A stretch of DNA of 64,000 nucleotides from an uncultured Verrucomicrobiae bacterium. GTDB lineage: Bacteria; Verrucomicrobiota; Verrucomicrobiia; Chthoniobacterales; UBA10450. Numbering within the stretch: position 1 is the stretch's first letter; each line of letters starts with the position of its first letter. The notes beneath the pieces were generated by a model. The model searched no databases. It had not been told where the DNA came from and saw nothing but the letters and a program-made list of their open reading frames with translations. This document shows positions 17,987 through 50,447 of this stretch, in pieces. Both the position numbers and the translations under genes were made by a program. Location: contig CAVYXA010000003.1 of NCBI GenBank assembly GCA_963772365.1, positions 512,001-576,000 on the forward strand, given 5' to 3'.

Positions 17987-18299
17987 GATGGATCTTTTCA
18001 GTTCCAGACTTGACGAGGCGGCAAAGTTTTGACGTGATCGATTTTGCCAAGCGCTCACTTTTTGCTATCGGAATTTGTGGCCGCACCGTTTTTGTAGAAT
18101 CGACATGGAATTTTCTGATCACGAATTTTAAATTTTATTTTGCCCTTGCGCGGTGGTTCCATAAAATCCCGCCAGCCCCTCGGACGCAGTATTAACCTTA
18201 ACCCTTCGCAACGTCTGAACAGCGCACATCCTGATTGCAGTTTTGATTCATTCCTAGGCTGGCCGCTGTGGCCGGATGGCGGTCTCGCTGCCTGAGCCT

Positions 18300-19025
18300 A
18301 TGGCGAACTTCTTTCCGCGCTGGTGCAATTGGCTGCCATTCAAAATGGCGATCTGCGGCACTCTCCTTGTTTGCGCGTTGACCGGTGCAACCTGGTATTA
18401 CGCCACCGGCAAATACACGAAAGTTGGCTATCAGCCAATTCAGCCGGTGCCGTTTCCGCATGATATCCATGTCACGCAATTGGGAATGGATTGCCGGTAC
18501 TGTCACAGCTTTGTCGAAGTTACGGCTCAATCGAATATCCCAACTACGCAGACGTGTATGAACTGCCATTCGCAGGTGCAAAAGGACAACCCGAAGCTGG
18601 AGCCAGTGAGAGCGAGTTGGAAGAGCGGCCAACCGATCGAGTGGGTGCACATTCACCTGCCGCCGGATTACGTCTTCTACAACCACGCGGCCCACGTGAA
18701 TCGCGGGATCAGTTGTTTCAGCTGCCACGGACCAGTGAACCACATGCCGGTCGTGTATGACGCAAAGCCTTTCACGATGGCGTGGTGCTTGGATTGCCAT
18801 CGGCACCCGCAAAATTTCTTGCGGCCGCAGGAACAGGTTTTCAATCTGGATTGGAAACCGAGTGATGTGCAACCGGCCGATTTCGTGGCCAAATACGGAA
18901 ATCCAAGCGGTGTAACGGAAGATTGGAGTAAGAAAAAACATCTCACCCAGGAGGAGATTGGACGGACGCTGAAACAACGCTGGAACATTAAACCGCCGAC
19001 AAATTGCCAGGGGTGCCATCGATGA
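18300..19025 (+). CDS. actA: Alternative complex III pentaheme cytochrome c subunit
   Basis: Five CxxCH (CRYCH, CMNCH, CFSCH, CLDCH, CQGCH) and an N-terminal TM helix. Confidence 0.92.
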   Translation: MANFFPRWCNWLPFKMAICGTLLVCALTGATWYYATGKYTKVGYQPIQPVPFPHDIHVTQLGMDCRYCHSFVEVTAQSNIPTTQTCMNCHSQVQKDNPKLEPVRASWKSGQPIEWVHIHLPPDYVFYNHAAHVNRGISCFSCHGPVNHMPVVYDAKPFTMAWCLDCHRHPQNFLRPQEQVFNLDWKPSDVQPADFVAKYGNPSGVTEDWSKKKHLTQEEIGRTLKQRWNIKPPTNCQGCHR

Positions 19026-22000
19026 AGCGCGTTTTACATCATCCGCCTGAGCCGAACAGAGGGAAGCGTTATTGGCGCAGCCTCGATGAGCTGAGCAACA
19101 CGTCCGAGTTTCGTCACTGGCTGGAGCGGGAATTTCCGGACGGCGCAGCCGAGCTGGAAGGCGACGAATGGTCGCGTCGAAATTTTCTCAAACTAATGGG
19201 CGCATCGTTTGCCCTCGCCGGTTTTGGATTAACCAGTTGTCGCCGGCCGGAGATGCATCTGGTTCCATTCACCAAGAACGTCGAATGGACCATTCCTGGG
19301 AAACCGCTTTTCTACGCCACCGCAATGCCGCGCCGGAGCGGGGCGATTCCTCTTGTTGTTACCACCAACGATGGCCGGCCCACTAAGATCGACGGAAATC
19401 CGCTTCATCCAATCAGCGGAGGCGCGACTGACGCTTTTGCGCAGGCCTCGATTCTCGATCTTTACGATCCCACGCGTTCGCAGCGTTTTCTTCATAATGG
19501 AAAACCGGCGGATCGCGACTCATTTGATACATATCTGAAAAAGCTGCGCGAGAGCATCGCGGCTGATGGCGGCGCGGATGCCGCCTTTCTGGTCGAGGAA
19601 ACATATTCGCCCACTCGAGAACGGTTGCGAGGAGAACTGGAGAAAGCGTGGCCGAACATGAGCTGGTGTGTTTACGACCCACTCCTGAGCCAGGCCCAGA
19701 ATTCGGCTAACAACATTGGATTTGGGGCGCACTTGAATCTCGCACCGAAGCTCGATCGGGCGGATGTAATTTTCGCGTTGGACAGCGATTTTCTCGATTG
19801 CGGCCAGGGCGATCTCGCCGCGCTGCGCGCTTTTAGTTCTCGTCGCCGGGTCAGCTCGGCCAAAGACAGCATGAACCGGCTCTACGTCGTGGAGAATCGC
19901 TACACCCTGACCGGCGCCATGGCGGACCATCGATTGTCGTGTCCCGCGAGTCAGATCCCGTTATTCGCATATCTTCTGGCTGGCAAAATTGTTGCGGGGA
20001 CAAATGACGCGGCGCTCGGTTCATTCGTTTCATCGATACCAGCACCAAACGGTGGGACAGGCATCAACGAACAATGGGTCACCGAAGCGGCAAATGATCT
20101 CTTGTCGAAGCCGGGGGCGAGTCTGGTCGTAGCTGGTCCGCATCAACCAGTGGCGGTGCAGCTTCTCGTTTATGCGATCAACTCCGCCCTGAAGAATATC
20201 GGGACAACACTGGTTGGCCGCAATGTCGCACGAAATCCGCGAACTCTGAGCATTCTGCAGTTGGCGAATGAGATCAATGAAGGCCGAGTCAAACGCCTTT
20301 TCATTTTCGGTGGAGATCCCGTTTACAACGCCTATCGAGGACTGGCGCAGGATAAACAGACCGGGCAACTTCTCGATTGGCTCGATTTGCAAAAAAAAGT
20401 GCCCGAGATCGTGCGCCTCGGCTATCACGTCGATCTGACATCCAGACTGAGTCATTGGCATGTGCCGGCGGCGCATTATTTGGAATCATGGGGTGATGCG
20501 CTCGCTGCGGATGGCAGCTTCTTGTCGATCCAACCAATGATTCTTCCGCTGTTCGGCGGTCTGTCGGAAATTGAATTGCTGAATGCTCTTCTGGGTGGGC
20601 CAAATCCGACCGGACCGGAACTGGTGCAGGAAACATTTCGCGCCACCAATCCGCCGGGGGATTTTGATACGGCCTGGTCAAACTTTTTGCGAGACGGATT
20701 TGCGCCGCACATCAAGAACCCGGAAGCAGCTCTTTCATTCAATTCCGGATCGGCTGGCGCTGCGCTCAAGGATTACAATCTTTGGAACCTGACGCCTGCA
20801 CCGAGTTTCGATTCACCTGAGATCGCGTTCGTGGGCAGCTACTCGATGGATGACGGCCGCTACACGAATAACGGGTGGCTTCAGGAGATGCCCGACCCGA
20901 TCACGAAATTGACTTGGGACAACGGTGCCATGATGAGTCCGACTTTCGCGAAACGACTCGGCGTCGAGACCGGCGATCTCGTGCAGATTACGGTTAGAGA
21001 GAAAGTGCCCGGCGGAAGCGAGCCCATCAAGCGTGAGCTGGTCATAGCTGCCCTGGTTTCGCCGGGACACGATGATGCATCGATCACAATTCCGCTCGGC
21101 TACGGCCGCAAATTACCCGAATTCGATACCCTTCCGTATGCCGGTGCGGAGGCTGCAAGTGGGTCGACGACCGAGAAGCAACGCGGTTTTAACGGCTATT
21201 TGTTGCGCGGAGCGCGAAATCCGCACTTCCTCATCGCTGATGGCGACCATATCGAAAGCGTAAAAGTTACAAAGGTTGGTCGCAGATATCCGCTCTCGAT
21301 CACCCAGGACCATTTCAGCATTGAAGGACGCGGTCTAGTCCGGGAAGCCACTCTGGAGCATTACCGGGCCGACCACGATTTCGTTCAAGAAGTCGAAGGC
21401 ATCATCGCAGAAGAACACCAACTGCCCACCATTTATACCCATCCGACAATGGATGCCCCGCAGCAGTGGGGAATGGCTGTCGATCTTAACGTCTGCACCG
21501 GTTGCAGCGCATGCGTGATTGCTTGTCAGGCGGAAAACAATATCCCGATCGTGGGCAAGCTTCAGGTCAGTCACGGCCGTGCCATGCACTGGATGCGGAT
21601 CGATCGATATTACGCCAGCGCGAAGCCATTCAATCAGGATAATGGTGAGTGGCCGCAGCACCCCGAGATCGTTCATCAACCGATGTTCTGTCAGCATTGC
21701 GAGAACGCGCCTTGCGAAACCGTGTGTCCGGTCAACGCCACGATTCACAGCGAAGATGGCTTGAACGTGATGGTTTATAATCGGTGTGTCGGAACCCGGT
21801 ATTGCGCCAATAACTGCCCATTCAAAGTGCGCCGGTTCAATTTCTTCGATTACAACCAGCGGCCGGTCGGCAAGAAGACAATCGCCGGCGAGTTTGGCAT
21901 CTACGCCGAATACATTGCTCCGTTCACCGATAAAGGCGCGCCCGATGTCGTGAAGATGCAGAAAAATCCGAATGTCACGGTTCGGATGCGCGGTGTGATG

Positions 22001-22351
22001 GAGAAATGCACCTTCTGCGTTCAGCGCATCGAGGAAGCAAAAATTGCCGCCCATGTCCGCGCCGGCGATTCGCCGAATACACTAATCCCGCGCGATTCAT
22101 TCACCACGGCGTGCGCTCAAGCGTGCCCGACGGAAGCGCTCGTGTTTGGCGATATCAAAGATCCAGAAAGCAAGGTCTCGAAGATGAAAGCGCAGGACCG
22201 AAACTACAAACTGCTTAAATATTTAAACGTGAACACGCGCGCGAGCTATCTGGCGCGCCTCCGCAATCCAAATCCAAAAATGCCGGATGCCAACGAGATC
22301 GGTGTCGCCAGTCCGATAGAGAAGGAGCCTGTGAGAGAAAAAGAAATGTGA
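19022..22351 (+). CDS. actB: Alternative complex III molybdopterin-oxidoreductase-like/Fe-S subunit
   Basis: YWRSLDEL, Tat SRRNFLK, C-terminal Fe-S motifs CTGCSACVIAC, CQHCENAPC, CVGTRYC, CTFC. Confidence 0.93.
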   Translation: MKRVLHHPPEPNRGKRYWRSLDELSNTSEFRHWLEREFPDGAAELEGDEWSRRNFLKLMGASFALAGFGLTSCRRPEMHLVPFTKNVEWTIPGKPLFYATAMPRRSGAIPLVVTTNDGRPTKIDGNPLHPISGGATDAFAQASILDLYDPTRSQRFLHNGKPADRDSFDTYLKKLRESIAADGGADAAFLVEETYSPTRERLRGELEKAWPNMSWCVYDPLLSQAQNSANNIGFGAHLNLAPKLDRADVIFALDSDFLDCGQGDLAALRAFSSRRRVSSAKDSMNRLYVVENRYTLTGAMADHRLSCPASQIPLFAYLLAGKIVAGTNDAALGSFVSSIPAPNGGTGINEQWVTEAANDLLSKPGASLVVAGPHQPVAVQLLVYAINSALKNIGTTLVGRNVARNPRTLSILQLANEINEGRVKRLFIFGGDPVYNAYRGLAQDKQTGQLLDWLDLQKKVPEIVRLGYHVDLTSRLSHWHVPAAHYLESWGDALAADGSFLSIQPMILPLFGGLSEIELLNALLGGPNPTGPELVQETFRATNPPGDFDTAWSNFLRDGFAPHIKNPEAALSFNSGSAGAALKDYNLWNLTPAPSFDSPEIAFVGSYSMDDGRYTNNGWLQEMPDPITKLTWDNGAMMSPTFAKRLGVETGDLVQITVREKVPGGSEPIKRELVIAALVSPGHDDASITIPLGYGRKLPEFDTLPYAGAEAASGSTTEKQRGFNGYLLRGARNPHFLIADGDHIESVKVTKVGRRYPLSITQDHFSIEGRGLVREATLEHYRADHDFVQEVEGIIAEEHQLPTIYTHPTMDAPQQWGMAVDLNVCTGCSACVIACQAENNIPIVGKLQVSHGRAMHWMRIDRYYASAKPFNQDNGEWPQHPEIVHQPMFCQHCENAPCETVCPVNATIHSEDGLNVMVYNRCVGTRYCANNCPFKVRRFNFFDYNQRPVGKKTIAGEFGIYAEYIAPFTDKGAPDVVKMQKNPNVTVRMRGVMEKCTFCVQRIEEAKIAAHVRAGDSPNTLIPRDSFTTACAQACPTEALVFGDIKDPESKVSKMKAQDRNYKLLKYLNVNTRASYLARLRNPNPKMPDANEIGVASPIEKEPVREKEM

Positions 22352-22480: not shown

Positions 22481-23942
22481 ATGGACGAAACGCCCACAGC
22501 ACCAGAGGTAATCAGAGGCGAAGCGACGGCTACCGTCGAGCGCCCGCTTTCACGCGTGCCGCTGGTGTTGAACCGGCGCAATTTCAGTTGGATCACGGAA
22601 CGAATCGCCGGTGTTGTGGAAAATCCAGCACCGCGATGGTGGTGGGTCACATTCACGATCACCGCCTCGGTTGCGATGTTCGGTTTGTTCTGTCTGGGCT
22701 ATCAAATTTCCACCGGAGTTGGCACTTGGGGATTGAATCATCCGGTTGGCTGGGCCTGGGACATCACCAATTTCGTCTTCTGGATCGGTATCGGTCACGC
22801 CGGCACCCTCATCTCAGCTATCTTATATTTGCTCCGGCAAAAATGGCGCACGTCCATCAATCGCTCAGCGGAAGCGATGACGCTCTTCGCCGTCATGTGC
22901 GCCGCAATCTTCCCGGGCGTGCACGTCGGTCGGGTCTGGATGGCGTGGTTTCTCGCGCCTGTTCCTAACAACTGGGCGATCTGGCCGAATTTCCGCAGCC
23001 CGCTTATGTGGGACGTATTTGCGGTCTCGACTTATTTCACCGTCTCGGTGCTTTTTTGGTACACTGGCTCTGATCCCTGATCTCGCCACCTTACGCGACC
23101 GCGCCGTAACGAAGATCAAGAAATTCCTATTCGGAGTGTTCGCATGCGGGTGGCGCGGGTCCAATCGCAACTGGCGTCATTACGAAATGGCGTATCTCTT
23201 GTTGGCCGGTCTTTCCACGCCCCTCGTTCTTTCCGTGCATAGCGTCGTATCGTTCGACTTCGCGACGTCGATTCTACCGACGTGGCATACCACGATTTTC
23301 CCGCCCTACTTTGTCGCCGGCGCCATCTTTGGCGGATTTGCCATGGTGCTGACTCTGCTGATTCCCGCGCGCGCGATTTTTAAACTACAGGACATCATCA
23401 CCGAGCAGCACATCGACAAGATGGCCAAAATCATTTTGTTGACCGGCTCGTTCGTGACTTACGCCTACGCGATGGAATTTTTCATCGCCTGGTACAGCGG
23501 CAATCAATACGAGCGATTCGCTTTTTGGAACCGCGTATTCGGTCCTTATTGGTGGTACTGGTGGGTCGGCATGCTCTTTTGCAACATGCTTTCTCCGCAG
23601 CTTTTCTGGTTCCGCTGGTGCCGGCGGAACATCTTTGTCGTTTATTTCGTTAGCATGTGCGTCAACGCGGGCATGTGGTTCGAGCGCTTCATCATCATCG
23701 TCGGCGGATTGCACCGGGATTTCCTGCCGTCCTCGTGGGAGCTTTTCATTCCAACGTGGGTGGATATCTGGACGTTCATCGGCACGCTCGGGATCTTCAC
23801 ATCCCTGTTCCTTATTTTCATTCGATTCCTGCCGATGATCGCAATGTCCGAAGTGAAAATCGTCTTACCTGAAGCCGATGCCCATTACGCCACCCCTACT
23901 GAGCATCATCCCATCGCTCCCGGCGGAAAGGAGCGCACATGA
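22481..23942 (+). CDS. actC: Alternative complex III NrfD-type quinol-binding subunit (frameshift near 23070)
   Basis: [54 protein letters not shown]. Confidence 0.92.
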
Positions 23943-24081
23943 GCCGTGTAAGAACGCCAAGTTGCTGTGGCGTGCGCTCTCCTGAGCGCATATTCCTGAG
24001 ACATGGCAAACATGAATCCGCTGAGGACAGCGGACGCTACAGCAATGCCCGTGATTGGCCGCGGAAAGGAGCGCACATGAG
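23923..24081. repeat. 21-bp direct repeat (RBS plus start) flanking a REPIN-like inverted pair
   Basis: GCGGAAAGGAGCGCACATGAG at 23923 and 24061; inverted arms 23962..23991 and 24016..24045. Confidence 0.85.
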
Positions 24082-24635
24082 AACGCCAGCCGGTCACAAA
24101 GTTTACGCCATGGCGGCTGAATACCCGAGTGCGGCGCCCTTTACGAAGCGGCCAAAATGGTGCGCGATGCGGGATTCAAACGCTGGGATGTTTATTCGCC
24201 TTTCCCAATTCATGGAATGGACGACGCCATGGGCTCTGGGAAAATCGTGGCTAAGCGCGGTAGTCCTGGCTGGCGGCATCACCGGTCTGTGCACCGCTGC
24301 TCTCGTGGAATTCGGTCCGTCGTCGATCCTGTATCCACTCGTCGTCCATGGTAAACCGACAAACTTCTTCACCGTTCCGGCTTTTTCCCGATCATGTTCG
24401 AGTTGACCGTTTTGTTCTCGGCTTTGCGGCTTTCTTCGCTGTGCTGATCATGAACGGTCTGCCGCGCCCGAATCATCCGATGTTTAACTGGAACCGGTTC
24501 AGTCGGGTTACGAACGACGGTTTCTTTCTGGCAATCGAAGCGCGAGATCCGCGGTTTACCGAAGTGGAAGCGCGCGAGCTTCTCGAGCGAAGCGGTGGCG
24601 AGCACATCACCATCATTCACGAGGAGGGAGCATGA
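23939..24635 (+). CDS. actD: Alternative complex III subunit D (DUF3341), frameshifted
   Basis: [46 protein letters not shown]. Alternative start at 24077. Confidence 0.85.
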
Positions 24636-25358
24636 TTCGCGGTTTTCTATTGATCTCCCTCTTGGTCGTGCATTGCGGCCCTCGCCGTGCTTGGTTTTCG
24701 TGGACAAAAAGGCACGGCGACTCCATTTGAATTGTTCCCCGACATGGTGCGCCAGATGAAGGTGCGCGCCCAAGCGCCGCTTGCATTTTTTGCCGATAAT
24801 CGCGGAGCGCGTCTGCCGGTACCCGGCACAGTTCCGATCGGTTACACAATGCCGAAGCCGCAAGACCATCGCCACGCCAGCGACGGTTGTTCCAGTGCCC
24901 GAGACATACTCGCAATCTCGACCTTCAGCGTAGGCACCGATTATTACGACACCGGGAAAATGGGCGACCAATGGGGGACTGGCATTCCGTTCAAAGTGAC
25001 GCCCGATGTCATGTGCCGCGGGCAACAGCGTTTCAACATCACCTGCGCGATGTGCCACGGCGCGAGCGCGGCCGGGAACGGCATCACCAAACAATACGGA
25101 CTGGCCACAGTCGTCAGCTTCAGGACGACCGTATCCGTAAAATGGCTGATGGCGAAATTTTCAACACCATCACACATGGCAAGAACACGATGATGGCTTA
25201 TGGCCCGAATCTGCCAGTGGCGGATCGCTGGGCGATCATCGCCTACCTGCGCGCCTTGCAGCGAAGCCAGCACGGCCTCGTGGCTGATGTGCCGCCGGAA
25301 CATCAGAGCCGAATTGGAAAAACCGAAGGCAACTCCGGCGCCTGCAGCAAAACCATGA
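24632..25358 (+). CDS. actE: Alternative complex III monoheme cytochrome c subunit, frameshifted
   Basis: PDMVRQ, GQQRFNITCAMCHG, DRWAIIAYLRALQ. Confidence 0.85.
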
Positions 25359-26563
25359 GCGCGCGATCCCAAACATTACCAACGCCCGAAGGCGAACGCT
25401 TTGAAACGGGCCGTTTCACCGGGCTGTCGATCTTGCTGGGCGTGATCGCTCTGGTTTTTCTTATCCTTTGTCTGGTTGGGGCCATCGTCGATCCTCACCA
25501 ATTCAGTTTTTCCTGGCTGTTTGCATTTGCCTTTTTCTTTACTCTTTGCGCCGGTTGCTTTTTTCTGGACCATCGTCCATCACGCGACGGACGCCGAATG
25601 GTCGGTCGTGGTGCGGCGGCAACTCGAAAATCATCGGCGCGTTCTGGCGATGATAGCGCTGTTCTTCATTCCGATTCTGTTGCTCCGACATCATCTTTAC
25701 GAATGGATGAACATTCCGCCGGGCCACGAAGCATCCCTGGACTAGCAAGCGCGCATATCTCAATTGGGGATTTCTTCGTTTTCCGGGCGGTTTTCTTTTT
25801 CGGATCGTTCATTCTGGCCACTCAATCCTTGCGCCGTTGCATTCCATTCGGCAAGATGGAGATGGAAATCCGCGGCATACGATTTGGATGCGCAAGGTGG
25901 CATTTCGCCAGTCTGCCGATGTTTGCGCTTTGCCTTACCTTCGGCGCGTTCGATTGGCTGATGAGCCTGAACTACCACTGGTTCTCCACCATGTTCGGCG
26001 TTTACATCTTCGCTGGAACCGCCGGCAGCTCGATGTCGTTGCTTGTTCTGGTCATCACCGCGTTGCGCCGGGCCGGTTATTTGAAGGATGTCGTCACCGT
26101 CGAGCATTACCACATCATGGGGAAATGGATGTTCGCCTTTGTTGTCTTCTGGGCCTATATCGGGTTCGGCCAATACATGCTGATCTGGTATGCGAACATG
26201 CCGGAGGAGACGCAGTATTTCATCACTCGAAACACGGAATCATGGTGGGCTTTGAACATGCTCCTGGTGATCGGGCGTTTCTTCGGCCCGTTCGCGATCC
26301 TGCTTTTGCGCTCGATCAAAAAACATCCCGATCAACTTTGCTGGGCGGCTGGTTGGATCGTGTTCATGCAATTGATCGACATGTACATCGTCGTTCTGCC
26401 GGCGCTGCATGGAACCGGCATCCATGTCAGCATATGGGATTTCGTCGCTCTCATCGCGATGGGCGCGACTCTCGCCTTTGTCTATCTGCGGCTCCTGCCC
26501 CGCAGTTCGCTTTTCCCCGTGCGCGATCCGCGCCTGATTGAATCGTTGAGATTGACCAACTGA
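25355..26563 (+). CDS. actF: Alternative complex III membrane subunit F, frameshifted
   Basis: DWLMSL..HWFSTMFG, FGQYMLIWYANMPEE. Confidence 0.87.
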   Translation: MSARSQTLPTPEGERFETGRFTGLSILLGVIALVFLILCLVGAIVDPHQFSFSWLFAFAFFFTLCAGCFFLDHRPSRDGRRMVGRGAAATRKSSARSGDDSAVLHSDSVAPTSSLRMDEHSAGPRSIPGLASAHISIGDFFVFRAVFFFGSFILATQSLRRCIPFGKMEMEIRGIRFGCARWHFASLPMFALCLTFGAFDWLMSLNYHWFSTMFGVYIFAGTAGSSMSLLVLVITALRRAGYLKDVVTVEHYHIMGKWMFAFVVFWAYIGFGQYMLIWYANMPEETQYFITRNTESWWALNMLLVIGRFFGPFAILLLRSIKKHPDQLCWAAGWIVFMQLIDMYIVVLPALHGTGIHVSIWDFVALIAMGATLAFVYLRLLPRSSLFPVRDPRLIESLRLTN

Positions 26564-26565
26564 AG

Positions 26566-27056
26566 ATGGCAACGCCCGTCACACTACACGAAGTGGCACA
26601 TACTCGAGCGCCGTTCTCAACCTGGCTAGGTGTTATGCTTCTTCTTTTTAATTTTCGGCGCGATCGTGCTCGCCCTCATCGGCCCAATGCCGCGCCAGGA
26701 CGACTACGAAGCGAAACGGGCTAAGACGCGTCTGGAAAAATTAAAAGCCCAGCGCGAAGAAGAGCCAAGGCACTCACGAGTTACGGTTGGATCGATAAAA
26801 CTAAAGGTGTCGCCCGAATCCCAATCGAGCGGGCGATGGAATTAACAATGGCCGAGCTGGCGCAGAAACAGCCGGCGCCGGCTTATCCAATTGCCACGCC
26901 GCCGCCGCAGGCTTCTGCTTCCCGCGTCGGCTCCGCCGTCCGCCGCTACGCCCGCTCCTTCGCGCAACGCCCAACACCCTACAGCCGGCCCTCAAGCCAC
27001 TTCTGTTTCCGGTCCAAACTCCGAGGAGCGGGCACACCAACCAGCCGCCACGATGA
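26566..27056 (+). CDS. Single-TM protein in the ActG position, frameshifted; 3' boundary uncertain
   Basis: TM helix, then YGWIDKTKGVARIPIERAMEL in an alternate frame, then a Pro/Ala-rich tail. Confidence 0.6.
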
Positions 27057-28640
27057 ATCCTCAGCCGACAACGGCTCAGTCGCCCGCGCAATCTCCCATT
27101 GTCCATCACGGTCCAAGCTCAAACGCGGCAGGATCATCCCCATCAAGATATCGATCTTAATGAAGTGACCGCCCGGGATTCCTTTGAAAGAACCAACGAT
27201 TCCGGCCAAGCCACGCCGACAGATGTCGAGCAAGTCGAACGCGCATTGATCGATGCATCCACTCGTGTGCCAGTCTTGATGTTTTATGCTTCGGCCATCG
27301 TCTGGCTGTTGATTGGCACAGTGATGGCCGGGTACGTTTCAATCAAGCTGCACTCGCCCGATTGGTTATCGGATGTCAGGTTTCTGACGTGGGGCCGAAT
27401 GCGCCCGGCGCATATGAACGTGATGGTTTACGGCTGGGCATCGATGGCTGGAATAGGCACCGCCATCTGGATCATGGCGCGATTGTGCCGCACTACTTTA
27501 CGCTATCCTCTGTTGCTCGTAGCCGGCGGCGGCTTTTGGAATCTCGGCGTTTTGCTTGGCGTAGGCGGAATACTTGGTGGCCAAAGCACCGGCTATCAAT
27601 GGCTCGAGTTTCCACCCTATGCGGCCTCGTTCTTTTCGTCGCTTATATCCTGATCATTTCTTGGGCCGTGCTGATGTTCCGGTTCCGGCATGGCGAGCAG
27701 ATTTATATCACCCAATGGTATCTGCTAGGTGCGTTTCTCTGGTTCCCCTGGGTCTATGCCGCTGCGCAATTGATGCTGTTTGTCGTGCCCGTCCAAGGGG
27801 TGATGCAGGCGGCGGTCAGCTGGTGGTACGCAAATAATCTCATGTTTCTCTGGTTCGGGGCGATCGCGCTGGGTGCCGCTTATTACATGATCCCGAAAGT
27901 GATCGGCCGCCCGGTTTACAGTTACCATCTCGCTACGATCGGATTCTGGACTTACGCGCTGTTTTCAGCTGGACAGGGATGCAGCGACTTGTCGATGGTC
28001 CATTCCCGGCCTGGATGATCACCGCAGTATCGCTGCGACAATTCTCACATTGATTCCCGTCGCGACGGTCGGGTTGAATCATCACATGACCATGCAGGGT
28101 TATTTCCCACTCATGAGATATAGTCCCACCCTGCGCTTTACCGTGTTCGGCGCGATGTCTTACACGGTGTTCAGTCTGGTCGGCATCGCAATTTCGCTGC
28201 GCTCGGTCGCGCATTACGTGAACTTCAGCCAGGCCAGCATCGCCTATTCGCATTTGGGGTGTACGCCTTCTTCACCATGACATGTTCGGCTCAATGTATT
28301 ACATCGTCCCGCGACTGGTCGGCCGCGAATGGCGCTACGCTACTCTCATCAAATTGCATTTCTGGGGTTCGGCTTATGGAATCGGGCTCATGATTCTGAT
28401 GTTGCTCGCCGGCGGATTTATTCAGGGCATAAATACTCAGGATCCGTCTCTTCCTTTCTCCGAGAGCGTTCAAGCCTTCTCCCCTATTTGCGCGGACGCA
28501 GTCTTTCCGGAATTCTCCTCGCCGCGTCGCATTTCATTTTCGCTTTCCATTTTGGACTGATGCTCTTTGGACTTGGGCGAACATCGACAGTTCCAACGTT
28601 TCTTAATCCAGTGGAGGCGGAAGCTTCCGGAGGCCATTGA
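27053..28640 (+). CDS. cbb3-type oxidase subunit I (CcoN)-like protein lacking binuclear-centre ligands; frameshifted, start uncertain
   Basis: TWGRMRPAHMN, YITQWY, WWYANN, YYMIPK..GRPVYSY, WTGMQRL, IAYSHLG, MYYIVPRL. Confidence 0.8.
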
Positions 28641-29627
28641 TGAAAGGACTGGCGCCGCTCTTCCTAGGAATTTTCGGAACGTTCGCGTTCTCTTGGATCG
28701 GTTTAACCGTCGTTCCGAACTACCAAATTGGGAGTCTCGATCCCCAATCGGATGAAGAGGGGACCGACATTTATCCGATGCCGCAATCGGGAATGGTTGA
28801 ACGTGGCCGGCGCATTTATGCCGCGAACGGCTGCATCTATTGTCACACACAACAGCTACGCGCCGATTACATCTCAGCCGATGTCGACCGAAAACGTGAC
28901 TACGGTGATCATCCAAGTTGGGGAGCACGCCGTAGCGCCCCGCGCGATTACATCTTCGCCAGGCCAGTTGTTGCTAGGAAAAGATCGAATCGGACCTGAC
29001 TTGGCGAACATCGGAAATGCGGCGCCATGCTGCGGAAGAGAATTCCGTCGCCTGCACCGAGCCCGGCTGGTTCAGCGGCGCCGGCCCCTGCCGCTTCACC
29101 GAGCCCACCCGCTTCCCGAATCCAACAGCGGCCAAATCTCCATCGCCCGGATCGACAATTTCGCCGGTCCATCTCCTGCTGCTTCTCGAAACGGCGCCGC
29201 TCCAACGGGATCACCTTCACCGAGTGCGCCCCTGCCGGGTCGCCATCACCTTCTCCCGCAGCGGAAAGTTCGGAACCGGGTCAGCTGAAAGCTTACACCG
29301 CGGCCTGGCATGCATGTTCATCTTTATGCCCCGCGCAGCATTAACATTGACTCCAACATGCCGGCCTATCGATTTCTTTACAAAAAACGCCCCATCGGCG
29401 GACAACGTTCTGCGGAAGCTTTGCAGCTGACCGGTCCTGATGCACCTCCGTCCGGTTGGGAAATTGTGCCGACCGCGGATGCCCAATGTCTCGTTGCCTA
29501 TCTCATGTCGCTTCAGCAATCTCACCCCTTGAGTGAAGTAAAATCCGCGCCGGCAACAGCCGCTGCGCCTGCCGGTTCACCGAGCGCTCCCGCGTCGCCT
29601 GCCGCCGCGTCGCCTGCACCAAAATGA
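28637..29627 (+). CDS. CcoO-like monoheme cytochrome c with Pro/Ala/Ser linker, frameshifted
   Basis: GRRIYAANGCIYCHTQQLR, RIGPDLANIG, HLYAPRS...SNMPAYRFL. Confidence 0.8.
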
Positions 29628-30403
29628 ACGAAGGCCCGACCAATCCGGAATCGAGCCCGCGCCAGGGCATGGACTACAGCGAATTCGCCGATGTCCAACA
29701 GGTGCACGCCGCGGTGCAACGCGAAAAACGCGAGCCCCGCGTCGGCCTCGAGCCACTCTCGATCTGGTTGGTTGCCGTTTACGGGCTGGCTGTCTTCTTT
29801 GGCGGCGCGTATCTCGGGCGTTACTCGGGAACTTTCAGCGGCAATGGTCTTGATCCGTTAGGCGGTCCGCCTCCCTCGAAAAAAGCAAGCGCCGCTGGTC
29901 CGGGTGGCGGCGCGCAGGTGGAGCTGACTCCTGCGGAGCGCGGCAAGAAAATTTTCGCGGCGAATTGTCAGACTTGCCACCAAGCCAACGGCGAAGGAGT
30001 GGCAGGACAATATCCGCCGCTGGCGGGTTCTGAATTCACTACGGGCGGTTCGCTTCGGCCCGCCATGATCGTGCTTAAAGGCTTGCAGGGACCAGTAACG
30101 GTGAAAGGCAAGCAATTCGGCACCGCGGTGATGCAACCCTGGGACAAAACCCTGACCGACCAAAAAATTGCAGAAGTCCTCACTTACGAGCGAAGCGCCT
30201 GGGGGAATAACGCCAGTGCCGTTACGCCCGAACAAATTGCCACTCTGCGGAAACAATTGGCGAATCATCCTGAGTCATACAGCGAGCACGAAATTCTCGC
30301 CGTTCCCGCCGAAGCCGAACTTCCCGGCGGAGCAGCTCCAGGCGCACCGCCCGCTGCCAAACCGAGCGAAGCCGCAAAACCCGGCGAACCCCCAAAGAAA
30401 TAA
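29624..30403 (+). CDS. Membrane-anchored monoheme cytochrome c
   Basis: TM helix, CQTCH, YPPLAGS, MQPW. Confidence 0.9.
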   Translation: MNEGPTNPESSPRQGMDYSEFADVQQVHAAVQREKREPRVGLEPLSIWLVAVYGLAVFFGGAYLGRYSGTFSGNGLDPLGGPPPSKKASAAGPGGGAQVELTPAERGKKIFAANCQTCHQANGEGVAGQYPPLAGSEFTTGGSLRPAMIVLKGLQGPVTVKGKQFGTAVMQPWDKTLTDQKIAEVLTYERSAWGNNASAVTPEQIATLRKQLANHPESYSEHEILAVPAEAELPGGAAPGAPPAAKPSEAAKPGEPPKK

Positions 30404-30445
30404 TCACGGCAGATGAACGGTCCGAATTCGAATTCTGAAAACCTG

Positions 30446-30477
30446 CCTGCCCGCCGTAGCGCGTAGCGGGAAGGAGG
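30446..30477. repeat. Family B-like element at the left edge of the RM island
   Basis: CCTGCCCGCCGTAGCGCGTAGCGGGAAGGAGG resembles 32938..32967. Confidence 0.45.
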
Positions 30478-30492
30478 AAAAGGGCCTCGAAA

Positions 30493-31113
30493 ATGGCCGG
30501 CAAGAAATCCACGGTGTCGAAGGCGCTCGCCCTTGAGCGAGTCGAGCCGCTGATCTATGAAATCCGTGGCGAAAAAGTGATTCTCGATTCGGACTTGGCG
30601 CGACTTTACGGCGTGACCACGAAGCGGCTCAACGAGCAGATAAAACGAAATAAGGAGCGATTTCCGGATGATTTCGCATTTCAGCTCAGCGCGAAAGAGA
30701 GTGCGACTTCAAGGTCGCAAATTGCGACCGGTTCACCGCAAGCCCTTGATCCTGAGTCGAGTGGAACGAACCGGTCGCAAATTGCGACCGGTTCCCAGAA
30801 GCATCGTGATCCACGTTTACGCCCTTACGCCTTCACCGAGCACGGTGCGATCATGGCCGCAAACGTCCTGAACAGCCCGCGCGCCGTGCAGATGAGTGTC
30901 TTTGTCGTGCGCGCCTTTCTCAAAATGCGGGCCCTGCTCGGGGACAAGCGCGACCTGGCCAAACAACTCGCCGCGCTGGAAAAGGAACTCAAACAACGGC
31001 TCGACGTTAACGAAGCGGCTATCGTCACCATCCTTCAACGCGTCATGGACATCATCGACCCGCCGGTCGCGCCGCCGGAGTCGGAAAAACCGAAGATCGG
31101 ATTCAAGCCATAA
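30493..31113 (+). CDS. ORF6N-domain DNA-binding protein
   Basis: IRGEKVILDSDLARLYGV..KRN.ERFP.DF.F.L, PYAFTEHG..MAANVLNS..A, C-terminal IGF. Confidence 0.9.
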   Translation: MAGKKSTVSKALALERVEPLIYEIRGEKVILDSDLARLYGVTTKRLNEQIKRNKERFPDDFAFQLSAKESATSRSQIATGSPQALDPESSGTNRSQIATGSQKHRDPRLRPYAFTEHGAIMAANVLNSPRAVQMSVFVVRAFLKMRALLGDKRDLAKQLAALEKELKQRLDVNEAAIVTILQRVMDIIDPPVAPPESEKPKIGFKP

Positions 31114-31143
31114 CCAATGCCCACGCCCGTTCCGTCAATCGGC

Positions 31144-31241
31144 ATTCGAAATTCGACGATCGAAATTTCCTCAGTCCCGCCCCGGGGCAACGCCAACTTC
31201 GCGCGGGCTTCACTTCCGCATTCCGCATTCGAACTTTGAAA
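31144..31241. repeat. Heptamer repeat patches flanking a short HsdM-like remnant
   Basis: ATTCGAAATTCGACGATCGAAATT and TTCCGCATTCCGCATTCGAAC; 31174..31203 encodes VPPRGNANFA. Confidence 0.5.
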
Positions 31242-31383
31242 TGCCTCGCGCCCCTTTTCTTTTGGAATAACTGGACGCCACAGGGCCGATTTACGCGAGG
31301 AGACAGGCAACGCGTTATGCGCGTCCAACGAACCGTGTGCAAGGCGCTGTTCCCAACAGCGGTGTGATCGGTAAAGACACCGG

Positions 31384-34802: not shown

Positions 34803-35077
34803 GCACGATCACCGCCATTCTCGAACCCGACCCGGATGGCACCTTGCACCTGCCGCTGCCGGCCGAGTTGCGCGGCGTGAAAGTCGAGGTCACCGCCACG
34901 CTCAAGCCGGCCGATGGACAATTGCCATCGCCGCCCAAAGCCACACCGGAGATGATCCAGCGGCGAATGGCCGCGCTCGCGCGCGTGCGTGAGCTCGATC
35001 CCTACCGCGACATTGCCGACCCCGTGGCATGGCAGCGCGAAATCCGCAAGGATCGCCCGCTCCCCGGCCGCGAATGA
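34799..35077 (+). CDS. Putative antitoxin
   Basis: 92 aa directly upstream of a PIN toxin; DPVAWQREIRKDRPLP C-terminus. Confidence 0.7.
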   Translation: MSTITAILEPDPDGTLHLPLPAELRGVKVEVTATLKPADGQLPSPPKATPEMIQRRMAALARVRELDPYRDIADPVAWQREIRKDRPLPGRE

Positions 35078-35081
35078 CTTC

Positions 35082-35459
35082 ATGCTCCTGGATTCCAACG
35101 TCATCATCGACGCGGCGAAACCGAGCGGAGAATGGCTGGCCCGCTTCGTGGCGGACGCCGGCGCGTGCATCAGCATCATCACGCGGATTGAAGTGCTGGG
35201 ATATCACCTGCTGACGACTGAGGAAGAAAGGGCAATCAGTCTCTACCTCGGTGATCTTTCCGAGCTTCCGGTCGACCATCCCGTGGCCGATCGTGCGATT
35301 GCCTTGCGGAAACAAAAGAAGATGGGACTGGCCGATTCCATTCTGGCCGCGACGGCGCAAGTGCACGGCCTGCCACTGGTGACGCGGAATGTGGCCGACT
35401 TCAAGGACGTGGCCGGGCTGAGCGTGATCGATCCGGTTGCGGCCAAGCCCCAGGGCTGA
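35082..35459 (+). CDS. vapC: VapC-family PIN-domain toxin
   Basis: MLLDSNVII, LADSILAATA..HGLPLVTRN..DF. Confidence 0.9.
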   Translation: MLLDSNVIIDAAKPSGEWLARFVADAGACISIITRIEVLGYHLLTTEEERAISLYLGDLSELPVDHPVADRAIALRKQKKMGLADSILAATAQVHGLPLVTRNVADFKDVAGLSVIDPVAAKPQG

Positions 35460-35485
35460 ATGAGTAGCGGATTACCGACTCCTGG

Positions 35486-35524: not shown

Positions 35525-35548
35525 TCCATCGCCCGGGAAGGCAATCTG

Positions 35549-44975: not shown

Positions 44976-45656
44976 GTGACCCGCGTTTTCATGGTCAGGC
45001 ATGGCGCCACAGTCTTGAGCGCTGAAGACCGTTTCGCCGGCGCAACCGATGTCGATCTTTCCGAAGAGGGCCGTGAACAAACACGGCGATTGGCTGACCG
45101 ACTGAGCCGTGAAAAAATCACAGCCGTTTATGCGTCGCCACTGGGACGCGCTGTCGAAACGGCGCAGATTTTGGCTGGGCCGCACAAACTCGAAGTCCAA
45201 ACCCGCGACGAGTTCCGCGAAATTTCGCACGGACGCTGGGAACAACTGACCCGGCGCGAAGTCGAGGAGAAGTTTTCGGAAGAAGCCGCCGAATGGGAAA
45301 AAGACCCGTATACGTTCGCGCCCGCAGGAGGCGAGAGCGGGCTGGCCGTGACGGCGCGAGCCTTACCGGCACTCGTCGATCTCGTTCGCAAGCATTCGGG
45401 TGAAAATATTCTCCTCGTTTCGCACAAAGCGACGATCCGGCTTCTGCTCAGTTCGCTCCTCGGCTTCGATCCCCGTCGCTACCGCGATAACCTCGATCAA
45501 AAACCGGCTGCATTGAACATTGTCGATTTTCGCGACGCGACCCGTGCGCGGCTCACCCTCTTTAACGATACTTCACATTATTCCGAAGCCGGCGAGGCAA
45601 TCCCTTCAGTGCCGGAGGAAAGATTATCGAAATGGTGGAATCGAAAAATGCAGTGA
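44976..45656 (+). CDS. Histidine phosphatase family protein
   Basis: VRHG, YASPL.RA..TA, GGES, LVSH. Confidence 0.9.
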   Translation: MTRVFMVRHGATVLSAEDRFAGATDVDLSEEGREQTRRLADRLSREKITAVYASPLGRAVETAQILAGPHKLEVQTRDEFREISHGRWEQLTRREVEEKFSEEAAEWEKDPYTFAPAGGESGLAVTARALPALVDLVRKHSGENILLVSHKATIRLLLSSLLGFDPRRYRDNLDQKPAALNIVDFRDATRARLTLFNDTSHYSEAGEAIPSVPEERLSKWWNRKMQ

Positions 45657-45723
45657 GCGCAAATTTTTCGGCTTTGCATTCGTCTTCTCTTTTTCGATAT
45701 TAGGCGCGAATCTTTTCTCGAAA

Positions 45724-47618
45724 ATGGACACCGGCACTTCTATCGAAAAACACGAACCAGTCCTTGAGCACGACGAACACGACCATCACGAGCTCGGGTT
45801 CTGGCGAAAATACATTTTTTCCACCGACCACAAAGTCATCGGGATTCAATACGGACTTTGCGGTCTGGTGTTTCTGTGTTCTTCGGTTTCTGTCTGATGA
45901 TGTTGATGCGGTGGCAATTGGCTTATCCCGGGCAGGCTCTGCCAGTGATTGGCAAATGGATTCCCTACATTTTCGGGGCGAACTCAATGCCCGATGGGAA
46001 GATGGCGCCCGATTTCTACAACTCGCTGGGCGCGATGCATGGCACCATCATGATTTTCTTGGGCGTAGTGCCGCTCGCTTTCGCTGCCTTTGGGAACTTC
46101 GTCGTGCCGCTACAGATCGGCGCTCCGGACATGACGTTTCCCAAGGTAAATGCGGCAAGCTTCTGGGCGTTTGCTGTGGGCGGCGTGATCATGCTTTTGA
46201 GTTTCTTCGTGCCGGGCGGCGCGGCCAAAGGTGGATGGACATCCTACACTCCCCTGGCGGCAATTTCGACGATACGGGGCCTGGGCGTCTATCTGGTATT
46301 CAATGGTCAGACGCTTTGGCTGCTCGGATTCATTTTTCTGATTACGTCGTCGCTTCTCGGCGCGGTCAATTTCATCACCACGATCATTCAGCTGCGGGCC
46401 AAAGGTCTTACCTGGATGCGACTGCCATTTTTCGTTTGGGCACAATTTGTGACCGCATTCCTGTTGCTGCTCGCCTTTCCGCCCCTCGAAGCCGCCATCG
46501 TCATGCAACTGATGGATCGCGTCGCCCATACCAGCTTTTTCCTGCCCAGCGGCCTGGTCGTGAATGGCGCGCCGGTCCACATCAGCGGCGGTGGCAGCCC
46601 ACTTCTGTGGCAACATCTCTTTTGGTTTCTCGGACATCCGGAGGTTTACGTCTTGATTTTGCCGGCGTTCGGAATTGTCGGTGAAATCCTCGCGAATAAT
46701 TCGAGAAAACCGCTTTGGGGTTACAAATCCCTCGTCTTTTCCGTGCTCGTGATTGGGTTTCTCTCGTTTGTCGTCTGGGCACATCACATGTGGTTGACGG
46801 GGATGGGCGCGACCGTGAGTGCGTTTTTCCAGACGACCACGCTACTGATCTCAATTCCGTCAGTTATTATTTTGAGCGCCTTTTTCATTTCGCTCTGGGG
46901 CGGCTCGATCCGGTTCACTGTGCCGATGCTTTTTGCGACTGCGTTCTTGCCGATGTTCGGAATTGGTGGCCTGACCGGTATTCCGTTGGCGTTTAATTCC
47001 GCCGATCTCTACCTGCACGATACCTACTACATCATCGCGCATTTCCATTACATCGTCGCCCCCGGCACGATCTTTGGATTATTTGCCGGTGTTTACTACT
47101 GGTTCCCGAAAGCGACCGGCCGAAAGATGAGCGATTTCTGGGGCAAAGTGCATTTCTGGCCCACGCTCATCTGCATGAACGTGATTTTTCTGCCGATGTT
47201 TCTACAGGGAATGGCTGGAATGCATCGGCGCTGGTACGATGGCGGGCAAGGATGGGGCGTTGCCAACGAGCATACCATCTGGGGATTGACTGGCTTTCAA
47301 TGGAACACGCCGATCTCGTGGGCGGCTTGGATCATGGGACTCGCTCAAATCCCGTTCATCATTAATTTCTTCTGGAGCATCAAGCATGGCCAGAAAGTGA
47401 ACGATAATCCGTGGGAAGCGACCACACTTGAGTGGACCGCGCCATCACCCCCGCCTCATGGAAACTTCGTTCACACGCCGGTTGCTTATCGCGGTCCTTA
47501 CGAATACAGCCTGCCCGGAAGCGAGCGTGACTACACGATGCAAAATGAGCCGGTCGAGCCGACGGAGCGCGTGCACAAACCCGCGCATGCGGCCGAGGAG
47601 TTAGTTACGCCAATCTAG
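45724..47618 (+). CDS. ctaD: Cytochrome c oxidase subunit I, A1 family (frameshift near 45875)
   Basis: STDHK.IG, MHGT, GHPEVY, WAHHM, AHFHY, GMHRR. Confidence 0.95.
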
Positions 47619-47643
47619 CCGAACTTGTTTGCTGATATAACAA

Positions 47644-48520
47644 ATGGAAATTCCATACACAGTCTCGACCCGACCTGACACCGGTTTGTGGAATGCGAAG
47701 ATCGGCATCTGGCTTTTTCTTGCCTCGGAAGTGATGCTCTTCGGCGGTCTTTTCTCCGCCTATATTTTTCTGCGAATCGACGCGCAGCCAGGCATGTGGC
47801 CGCATGGTTTGCTCAATGTTCCCGTCGGCACTTTTAATACCGCGATCCTGATCATATCGTCAGTGACGGTAGTGTTGGCGTGGGCGGCGTTCAAGATGCG
47901 CCGATACAATACTTATTGGTGGTACATGCTGGCGACGATTTCATGTGGAGTGATATTCCTGGTGGTCAAACTTGGTTACGAATGGCCGCAGAAGTTCGAC
48001 CACTTCGGCGCTTACATTAAGCCGGAAGCGCTGGCCAAATACGAACAGTATCTCGGTAACGAACACGCCGCTGCGAAAGGTCTTTCACCGCGGCTCGAGA
48101 TCACCGGCCACCTTCACAATCTTAAGGCACTGCACGATCCAAACATCAAGGAATACGAAGTTGCTTTGGATCCGCTAAACGCCGAGCCAACCAATCCGGA
48201 AACGGATCGCCCGCACTTTTGGCCGCATTCCGCTACGGAGAAGATTGCGGTGATCGAGAAAGAGGATGTCCAATACGCCACGATGTTCCTGCCTAAACAC
48301 AGCGCGTATTTCGCCAGTTATTTCACGATCACTGGCTCTGCACGGGGTCCACGTGCTCGCTGGCGTGCTGGTTTTCATTTACATGTGGTTGCCGGTCAGC
48401 AAGCGGCTCTACCAGCGCAATCCGGAGCATTTGGCCAACCGCGTCGAAGTCGCCGGTCTATTCTGGCACTTTGTCGATCTAATCTGGATTTTCGTATTCC
48501 CACTTTTTTATCTGCTTTAG
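47644..48520 (+). CDS. ctaE: Cytochrome c oxidase subunit III (frameshift near 48335)
   Basis: WLFLASEVMLFGGLF, LHGVHV, FWHFVDLIW. Confidence 0.9.
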
Positions 48521-48540
48521 CACCCTTGATGAACAAGCAC

Positions 48541-48624
48541 TGTCATGTTGAGCGAAGCGAAACATCTCAATCTTCCCGTATCGGGAGAAATGATCAGAGA
48601 TTCTTCGCTTTGCTCAGAATGACA
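48541..48624. repeat. Family E palindromic element
   Basis: TGTCATGTTGAGCGAAGCGAA...TTCGCTTTGCTCAGAATGACA. Confidence 0.8.
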
Positions 48625-48644
48625 ATTTGAGAAAGCATAGGTTC

Positions 48645-48987
48645 ATGAACAACCCGCCAGACGTTTCACCCGACTCGAAGGAATACGAGGAATACGCCCA
48701 CGGGATCCGCAAACACGTGAAGGGCTATCTGATGGTCGGCGCGATTCTTATCACGTTCACCGCTCTTACCGTCGCGCTTTCCTATGTGAATTTCGGCACG
48801 CCAAAAGCGAACATCGCAGTCGCGATGCTCGTGGCCATGATTAAGGCCGGCTGCGTGGCGGCTGTATTCATGCATCTGGCCGCAGAGAAACGACTCATTT
48901 ACCGAATCCTGATTTTCACCGGCTTCTTTGTGCTCGGACTTTTCTGGCTTACATTTTCTGGCTTGGTACAACCCCGTTGTTCGATAA
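48645..48987 (+). CDS. Cytochrome c oxidase subunit IV family protein (frameshift near 3' end)
   Basis: Three TM helices; KA..V..VFMHL motif. Confidence 0.8.
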
Positions 48988-49197
48988 ATGTCACTCAAGG
49001 GATTTCACATTTTTTTCATCGTTTTCACAACCGTGATGGCGCTGGGCGTCGGCGCATGGTGCATATGGGTTAATTGGTGGAAGGCGAGCCGATTTTTATC
49101 GCCGGCGCCATTGCTTCATTCGCGTCCGCCATTGCTCTGGTAATTTACGGCGTCTGGTTTTACCGAAAAATGAAACGATCTGCGTCTCATCACATGA
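48988..49197 (+). CDS. Small two-TM hypothetical protein (frameshifted)
   Basis: MSLKGFHIFFI...YGVWFYRKMK. Confidence 0.6.
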
Positions 49198-49574
49198 AAC
49201 AACTGCATTCGATTTCGCGACAGCTTTTGGAGTGCGACACCTTGGCGTCGCTTTCGCAACGACGCGCGAAAAGCGGTGCGAGGACGCCCCGCACTCCTAA
49301 AGCGCTTCGCGCGAAACTCAGCAAGACTTTCTCGGTGCTTCTAATGTTGATCTTGCTTTCCGCTCAGCAGGCGGCCGCTTGTCCATTTTGCTATGGCGCC
49401 AAGGATGGCAAAGCGTCCGAGCACATGGCCGTCGCAATCTGGTTTCTATTTGGTGCAGTGCTGTCGGTTTTTGGCGGCATCGGCGCATTCAGTTTTCATC
49501 TCTGGCGTCATGGGCGAATGCCGACTCCTCCTTACGAGGAACTGACCGAGGACGATTTGACCAAATATGACTAG
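49194..49574 (+). CDS. Small membrane protein with CPFC motif and a repeat-derived N-terminal extension
   Basis: Signal-like helix, AAACPFCYG, TM helix; 49213..49316 is a family D element. Confidence 0.6.
   Translation: MKQLHSISRQLLECDTLASLSQRRAKSGARTPRTPKALRAKLSKTFSVLLMLILLSAQQAAACPFCYGAKDGKASEHMAVAIWFLFGAVLSVFGGIGAFSFHLWRHGRMPTPPYEELTEDDLTKYD
49213..49316. repeat. Family D REPIN-like element
   Basis: TTTCGCGA..GGAGTGCG...CGCACTCC..CGCGAAA. Confidence 0.75.
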
Positions 49575-50447
49575 CCTCGCGCTTATCAACGAATTTCTCG
49601 GCCAGCCGCCAAACGTTGCCGAGCATGGTTATCAAATCGATCACATCCTGGAGTTCTGCCATTGGTTCATGGGCGCGTCTGTTTGTTGGCTGGTCGGCCT
49701 TTTTCATTTTTGTCCTTTTCCGATTCCGCCGAGGCCGACAACCCAGGGCCGATCACGAAGGAGTGCGAAGCGGGATCTCAACCCATCTGGAATTTTCGGT
49801 CGTCTTGATCGAAGCGGTCCTGCTCGTCGGGTTCGCTCTTCCGCTCTGGGCAAAGCGCGTGAATGAATTTCCTACAGGCAAGGATGCGATCCTTGTCCAC
49901 GTCGTCGGTCAGCAGTTCAGTTGGAATTATCATTTGCCGGGGCCGGATGGACAATTTGGCCATCGCAGTGTCGATCTGGTGAGCAATTCCAATCCGCTCG
50001 GGCTCGACCGCAACGATCCGGCCAGCAAGGATGACATCGTCACACTTGGAGAATTGCACGTGCCAGTCGATCGTCCGGTGATCATCGAGCTTTCGTCCAA
50101 GGATGTGATTCACAATTTCTGTTTGCCAAATATGCGGATCGCCACCGACGCAATTCCCGGGCAGCTCAACCCGATGTGGTTTACGCCGGTCAAGACTGGA
50201 ACCTACGAAGTGATTTGCGGTCAGCTTTGCGGTCTCGGCCATTACGGGATGAAAGGGACGCTCGTGGTCGATATCGCCGGCAGGATTATCAAGCCTGGTT
50301 AAAAGAACGCGCCGAGTTGGCGGCGAACACCAGCCGCGCCTCCGCCGATGCAGCGTCCTGCCGGCGAACCGCCGGTCGGCCCGACTCCTGGCTCAATTCC
50401 TCTGCCAGGGGCCGGGACAACGCCCTGCGCCGACGCCCGGCGGATAA
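49567..50447 (+). CDS. ctaC: Cytochrome c oxidase subunit II (frameshifted; 3' end approximate)
   Basis: GQQFSW, DVIHNF, DAIPG, CGQLCGLGHYGM CuA motif. Confidence 0.9.

Follow-up and report, generated by a model that had tools for sequence, protein, structure and literature searches.

Ligand-less homologs of cbb3 oxidase subunit I behind the alternative complex III operon of Verrucomicrobiae

What is the role of an oxidase catalytic subunit that has lost the residues of its catalytic site, while its gene is kept? This question is raised by a locus of an uncultured Verrucomicrobiae bacterium from the Chthoniobacterales order (GenBank assembly GCA_963772365.1, contig CAVYXA010000003.1), analysed here within a stretch of 64,000 nucleotides (positions 512,001 to 576,000 of the forward strand), referred to below as the window. 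In the window, the act operon encoding alternative complex III (ACIII) is followed by ccoN*, a ligand-less homolog of the cbb3 oxidase subunit I gene ccoN, and by homologs of ccoO and ccoP. A first-pass annotation of the same DNA had proposed that the CcoN homolog is a non-catalytic, heme b-bearing membrane module. Here we report an analysis of its ligand residues, selection, distribution, gene neighbourhood, and evolutionary history. On balance, we favour the reading that CcoN* is a cbb3 catalytic subunit without an oxygen-reducing site, which is kept under selection, probably as a membrane scaffold holding two c-type cytochromes that would pass electrons from ACIII to another terminal enzyme.

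Ligand residues, selection, and fold of CcoN*

The ccoN* gene occupies window positions 27160..28640 (start approximate; all features described here lie on the forward strand), and four pieces of the region 27099-28500 match PF00115 in order. Its start had been placed at 27053; judged from relatives, it lies nearer to 27160 (IPLKEP at 27178). Residues are numbered according to the Pseudomonas stutzeri CcoN (3mk7_A) via an alignment with the intact-frame relative L010 (E 6e-39), and we take the ligand roles of the numbered residues to be established knowledge. L010 is colinear with 3mk7_A, retains H60 and H347, and carries the replacements H207 to Asn, Y251 to Ser, H257/H258 to Gln/Arg, and H345 to Tyr. 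All five motifs pointed out in the first-pass annotation are found in the window gene. RPAHMN (27402..27419) keeps R57 and the low-spin heme ligand H60, WWYANN (27821..27838) has Asn in place of the CuB ligand H207, and SWTGMQRL (27967..27990) has Gln/Arg in place of the CuB ligands H257/H258. GLNHHMTM (28071..28094) carries a His pair at P. stutzeri positions 290/291, and in IAYSH (28239..28253) the heme b3 ligand H345 is replaced by Tyr and the low-spin ligand H347 is kept. The Y251 position, which is Ser in relatives, falls just upstream of SWTGMQRL, at an indel in the window gene. The alignment through L010 bears out that the CuB and heme b3 His and the cross-link Tyr were lost and both low-spin His retained.

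The same changes recur in a family alignment of 95 distinct sequences, which is biased to close relatives of the query and includes one sequence (L011) from an unpublished genome. At the CuB positions, H207 is replaced by Asn in 95/95 sequences, and His is found at position 257 in 0/95 and at position 258 in 1/95. The heme b3 position 345 is occupied by Tyr (89 sequences), Phe (5), or Trp (1) and by His in 0/95, and the cross-link position 251 by Ser (86) or Ala (9) and by Tyr in 0/95. An indel artefact was ruled out as the cause of the ligand losses, as the first-pass annotation had held, because the 95 family sequences share them. Nor does CcoN* have a NOR-type site, as all four binuclear His are absent and no Glu is substituted for them. 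The loss of the binuclear residues across the family supports the proposed non-catalytic nature of the module, as far as sequence can indicate it.

The low-spin heme ligands are retained in most family members, including the window copy. Among the 93 rows covering both positions, H60 and H347 are both kept in 86, both lost in 5, and singly lost in 2; individually, R57 is retained in 92/93, H60 in 88/93, and H347 in 88/95 sequences. Two further members, L243 and L239, lack both His, and a third, L244, lacks one. Members without the pair fall on more than one tree branch, and the rest of the protein is conserved in them. The description of a heme b-bearing module may hold for the window copy, which keeps both His, but heme b cannot be the point of the protein, since both ligands were lost in these 5/93 sequences and in L243 and L239.

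Of the residues that presumably have proton-channel roles, Y223, N289, and Y317 are kept in the family, and the replacements T215 to Gly, S240 to Ala, and H243 to Gly are found in 95/95 sequences. E125 is invariant, E122 is kept in 5/95, and E323 is absent. N207, R258, an aromatic residue at 345, and the NHH pair of GLNHHMTM are near-invariant. This pair had been noted as non-canonical; it is present in 95/95 family sequences but is not new, as 28/28 ligand-intact ACIII-linked relatives also carry it, which makes it a mark of the intact clade. NHH was thus rejected as a new site, being inherited from ligand-intact relatives.

These 28 ligand-intact sequences belong to other families. All six His and the Tyr are present in them wherever these positions are covered, and they differ from 19 canonical fused CcoNO proteins by NHH, Gly at H243, and the lack of E323, all three being common to the 28. 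With CcoN* they share the operon, the clade, approximately 45-54% identity, and the same three features, unlike the six His and the Tyr, which CcoN* does not retain. The missing H243 and E323 and the invariant NHH make a different proton path possible in these intact proteins (L102-L120, L148, L149, and L196-L204). In contrast to the intact set, another 23 CcoN sequences of other families are also ligand-less (dead). H60 is kept in just 4/23 and H347 in 3/23 of them, the NHH positions are mostly lost (3/23 and 7/23), and no common replacement set is seen. Most full-length matches among the 150 best cluster representatives resemble these 23 sequences. Gly, Pro, Trp, and loop Arg make up most of the residues that the intact sequences have in common with every dead group, a pattern expected if the fold is being maintained.

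Compared with relatives, the window ccoN* has six single-base deletions near 27626, 27966, 28025, 28253, 28278, and 28475, as well as uncertain indels near the start. Single-base indels also occur in actC, actD, actE, actF, and ccoO, and actA, actB, and ccoP are open; window 23000-29400, from actC to ccoO, is a locally poor assembly stretch dense in such indels. The frameshifts are likely assembly errors, judging from the sequence. When indel codons are skipped, the dN/dS of the window copy relative to six relatives is 0.05-0.085; five of these comparisons show no stop, and the sixth counts one. Across the family, 217 of 250 sampled pairs (80 sequences) were usable and give ccoN* a median pairwise dN/dS of 0.062, with comparison values of 0.065 for ActC, 0.091 for ActF, and 0.034 for A-family subunit I. 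Homologs behind act operons thus share the substitutions under purifying selection, which the first-pass annotation had proposed to check, and the dN/dS near 1 that it had named as a sign of decay was not seen.

The predicted structure of L010 (9-row alignment; pLDDT 84, pTM 0.87) has the cbb3 subunit I 3mk7_A as its best match (TM-score 0.84, rmsd 2.7), which points to a 12-helix CcoN fold. The ccoN* operon therefore resembles the P. stutzeri CcoNOP (PDB 3MK7) in the predicted fold and colinear sequence of subunit I, the low-spin heme His pair of most family members, the N-O-P gene order, and the CcoO heme motif. It differs in that CcoN* lacks the CuB His, the heme b3 His, the cross-link Tyr, and E323, that T215, S240, and H243 are changed, and that the third subunit is a monoheme cytochrome.

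Gene neighbourhood, partner cytochromes, and other oxidases

The window operon begins with actA (18276..19025), encoding the pentaheme cytochrome c of ACIII with five CxxCH motifs and Pfam matches to cytochrome c7/c3. The next gene (19004..22351), an open reading frame of 1115 amino acids with molybdopterin-oxidoreductase-like and Fe-S domains, is 70-72% identical to the same-position gene of relatives; we call it actB, assuming the usual ACIII layout from its place in the gene order. It is followed by the NrfD-family gene actC (22481..23942; PF03916 on both pieces, one indel near 23067), by actD (23939..24635; PF11821), which is broken by indels, and by actE, for a monoheme cytochrome c, together with actF (24580..26563, boundaries approximate, several indels). 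A small, indel-broken membrane protein gene (26566..26990, end approximate), which we presume to be ActG-like, has homologs in L092, L240, and L241 and no Pfam match.

Downstream, the ccoN* stop codon overlaps the start of the ccoO homolog (28640..29627), which encodes one membrane anchor, is indel-broken, and matches PF02433 weakly; its heme motif CIYCH lies at 28832-28846 and its axial-Met motif SNMP at 29352-29363. The intact third gene (29624..30403) encodes a CcoP-like membrane-anchored monoheme cytochrome c (PF00034, E 2e-13) with a Pro/Gly-rich linker and CQTCH at 29966-29980, which scores 31.6 bits on TIGR00782 (cut-off 180). With their overlapping stop and start codons, ccoN*, ccoO, and ccoP travel as one unit. 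A promoter and terminator scan of 26400-31400 gave nothing above shuffles. Beyond ccoP, window 30493-38770 holds an ORF6N-domain gene, the type I restriction-modification genes hsdM, hsdS, and hsdR, and a PIN-domain gene. The intact A1-type oxidase that had been noted approximately 15 kb downstream of ccoN* is encoded at 45606..50302 (start approximate; subunits I, III, IV, and II) and is the proposed electron acceptor; its A-family subunit I has the GHPEVY, HH, and HFH motifs, and its subunit II has a CuA-type motif and no CxxCH.

This arrangement is widely conserved. Wherever the flank was sufficient, actF lies within 1.5 kb upstream of ccoN* (62/62 loci), and ccoO and ccoP follow it in 57/57 loci. 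An A-family subunit I gene is located within 10 kb downstream in 19/39 loci. Throughout the class, intact and dead copies alike stand in the order actA-F, ccoN, ccoO, ccoP, and A-family genes often come directly after it; in several other families the A-family genes stand directly behind ccoP. The heme-binding motif CxxCH is present in 91/91 CcoO and 61/61 CcoP-like partners found in the family, and in 22/22 CcoO and 22/22 CcoP-like partners of the other dead lineages; the CcoO CxxCH and MP motifs are invariant in 21/21 aligned homologs. A long Ala/Pro/Ser-rich insert inside the CcoO cytochrome domain occurs in the window (28990-29310) and in L021, L046, L078, L085, L097, L100, and L215; it is absent or a few residues long in 14 aligned homologs from other families.

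With a single exception among the loci counted, ActA carries five hemes, and the operon-linked A-family subunit II lacks CxxCH in 19/20 loci; this leaves room for outside c-type carriers, though the same holds beside intact CcoN. In a hand tally, every genome whose dead copy was read directly has an A-family match (36/36), compared with 22/28 genomes carrying an intact copy; the tally excludes one genome that lacks CcoN and four family genomes whose copies were not directly read, and related genomes in it are not independent. In G080 and G092, which have an intact ACIII-linked CcoN, the two queries used revealed no further heme-copper oxidase. Besides the A1 oxidase, the window genome encodes an A2 oxidase that includes a cytochrome c domain of its own, and a B-family oxidase close to which a cytochrome b/Rieske pair is located (G000:C3:56659-63328; L181, L217); it has no other CcoN. 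ACIII as the sole quinol outlet was rejected, as cytochrome b was found in 3/5 genomes tested; this contrasts with the supplement of PMC5615132, in the available parts of which bc1 is given as missing in Verrucomicrobia genomes. A bd oxidase was not found in 5/5 genomes searched. In one locus, L135, a nosZ/nosD cluster (L135:8482-14551) lies between actF and a dead ccoN.

Distribution and history of ligand-less CcoN

A ccoN* match was found in 55/61 related genomes. The best 80 of 230 matches include, as named close matches, Candidatus Udaeobacter, Chthoniobacterales, unclassified Verrucomicrobia metagenome-assembled genomes, and one contig labelled Alphaproteobacteria. In a TIGR00780 search of 151 family genomes, three of them unpublished, 138/151 carry a CcoN-like gene and 0/151 exceed the cut-off; CcoN* itself scores 160 bits against a cut-off of 583. 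No conclusion drawn here rests on these three genomes or on L011. In a sample of the phylum, 45/151 genomes were matched. Two family genomes (G270 and G252) have a second, ligand-intact CcoN copy without adjoining act genes. Such second CcoN-CcoO pairs away from act genes are ligand-intact in L219 (G270) and L220 (G252) and broken in L150 (G026), and in family f45 (L136-L138), where the locus has no act genes, an intact CcoN is preceded by a gene for a seven-heme cytochrome c.

Quick trees place the dead CcoN inside the ACIII-linked clade (87 rows), with the other dead lineages as long branches. A tree with masked ligand columns (65 rows, after 22 were dropped to save time) needs no fewer than 2 state changes and rejects a single dead clade (p-AU 0.003). 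On the independent tree built from ActC (46 rows, 30 of them dead), the minimum is 8 state changes (p-AU 3e-6). Change counts alone cannot tell loss from gain; because a regain of five or more ligands is implausible, we infer repeated loss of the catalytic site across Verrucomicrobiae, to which gene replacement may have contributed.

Ligand-less copies extend to the Methylacidiphilum methanotrophs. The protein of Ca. M. infernorum named cbb3 subunit I (P0189) and that of M. kamchatkense Kam1 named cytochrome oxidase (P0190) each lack the Tyr and five of the six His, H258 being the one retained. Three genomes with close homologs of these proteins (G188, G150, and G168) encode two A-family oxidases, one or two B-family oxidases, one cNOR-type protein, and no other CcoN. 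In G188 and G168, one B-family subunit I (L184, L182) reads TGHQIVY and the other copy TGHPIVY. In the available parts of PMC6688271, PMC8498564, PMC10205796, and bioRxiv 10.1101/2024.01.15.574570, the Methylacidiphilum cluster is described as a cbb3 oxidase. The accessible text of the last of these also states that the cbb3 genes of strain IT6 were unchanged between oxic and anoxic growth, and that its nos cluster lies within the ACIII cluster, beside aa3 and cbb3 genes. ACIII adjoining cbb3 genes is already in print, as seen in portions of PMC8498564 and the PMC5615132 supplement. No description of a ligand-less CcoN was found in the literature searched, where a passing mention in subscription papers or supplements is possible, and it goes unmentioned in the available parts of bioRxiv 10.1101/2021.10.15.464467, PMC5492636, PMC6431628, PMC13608581, PMC4013037, and PMC5615132 with its supplement. 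Likewise, the papers searched yielded no example of a heme-copper oxidase subunit I that lacks a binuclear site.

Proposed role of CcoN* and its alternatives

In the scaffold reading, ACIII would oxidise quinol and reduce CcoO, which would sit on CcoN* as in a cbb3 oxidase and hand electrons to the tethered monoheme cytochrome. From there they would reach the CuA of the A-family oxidase or, in genomes that have them, a B-family oxidase or NosZ. The ACIII-to-oxidase relay, if real, more likely runs through periplasmic c hemes rather than through heme b, which is probably still bound as a structural cofactor in most family members and would be unneeded for the core role. Membrane-bound c hemes linking quinol oxidation to CuA have precedents in the monoheme output domains of ACIII, namely ActE of Rhodothermus and the extra heme domain of Flavobacterium ActA, and in the tethered cytochrome cy. 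In contrast to these, the carriers proposed here would be recycled cbb3 subunits together with a former catalytic subunit, in a job that we only infer. Several observations weigh against the scaffold. Single-anchor c cytochromes need not require a 12-helix support; the A2 oxidase and the cytochrome b/Rieske pair of the window genome offer other electron routes; and the subunit II beside an intact CcoN also lacks CxxCH (7/8), so this feature does not single out the dead state. Moreover, the tendency of H60 and H347 to be kept or lost together and the near-invariance of the replaced pocket residues could mean a retained cofactor role. The pocket is not special in this respect, however, since 283/455 positions of the family CcoN* are at least 95% conserved.

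Such a cofactor role is the basis of an unlikely alternative, that CcoN* works as a redox-active low-spin heme b protein, as a conduit, an electron buffer, or a redox sensor. The high retention of R57, H60, and H347, the coupled fate of the two His, the invariant E125, and the intact pair of the window copy all speak for it. Against it, the pair is missing from separate branches although the protein is otherwise conserved, the other dead lineages seldom keep either His, and no acceptor is left beyond heme b; as the heme b ligands are dispensable, we prefer a scaffold to a conduit or sensor. Somewhat less probable still is that CcoN* serves ACIII, or a supercomplex of ACIII and an oxidase, as a structural or assembly subunit, with the c cytochromes working independently of it. 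Its constant place directly behind actF, often between the ACIII and A-family genes, and its mainly structural conservation would fit, but ccoN*, ccoO, and ccoP overlap and move as a unit, and ACIII functions without CcoN* in other phyla.

We regard it as improbable that CcoN* has acquired a new catalytic site in place of the old one, such as a metal bound at the NHH pair or a Tyr-ligated heme, and acts on NO or another substrate. The near-invariant N207, R258, aromatic residue 345, and NHH would be in line with it, and new heme-copper families with altered sites exist, as portions of bioRxiv 10.1101/2021.10.15.464467 describe. On the other side, residue 345 is Phe or Trp in 6/95 sequences, NHH is inherited and mostly lost elsewhere, the other dead lineages have no common replacement set, and according to the accessible text of the same source, gNOR is the first family in which even a single active-site His is replaced, whereas CcoN* lacks all four. 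CcoN* shares the superfamily and the missing cross-link Tyr with cNOR, qNOR, eNOR, sNOR, gNOR, nNOR, and the 'degenerate B family' (PMC6431628, as far as available), but those families keep a His (and Glu/Asn) metal site and CcoN* is of C-family origin; for the latter reason, a cNOR-related N2O-reductase-like family was rejected as its identity. Least credible of all is decay of the window copy or of the family. The six frameshifts of the window gene and the long branches of other dead lineages would suit it, but the window dN/dS is low, the indels also affect five neighbouring genes, and the family genomes nearly always carry a CcoN-like gene.

Returning to the scaffold reading, we tentatively propose a wider scenario, which we hold somewhat short of an even chance. 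Verrucomicrobiae may have domesticated cbb3 many times, giving up its catalytic site and turning the remainder into a permanent hub through which ACIII delivers electrons via cytochrome c to aa3, ba3, or N2O reductase. The Udaeobacter-type family would be part-way, with most of its members still binding low-spin heme b; neither the abundant soil Verrucomicrobia nor the Methylacidiphilum methanotrophs would then have any cbb3 oxidase. Scoring ccoN* as a working oxidase is probably wrong. Ligand-less CcoN is near-universal in a dominant soil family, judging from its CcoN-like genes, none of which exceeds the canonical cut-off. Databases name CcoN* cbb3 subunit I, and papers, in the parts available, credit Methylacidiphilum with a high-affinity cbb3 oxidase on that cluster; the loss of ligands in the proteins so named changes genome-based readings of oxygen affinity and niche. 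What the window family contributes is a state in which the heme b His pair persists, even as it is being lost within the family; the intact, heme b-only, and ligand-free states form a natural series for how ACIII hands on its electrons. As Methylacidiphilum can be cultured, a direct test is possible.

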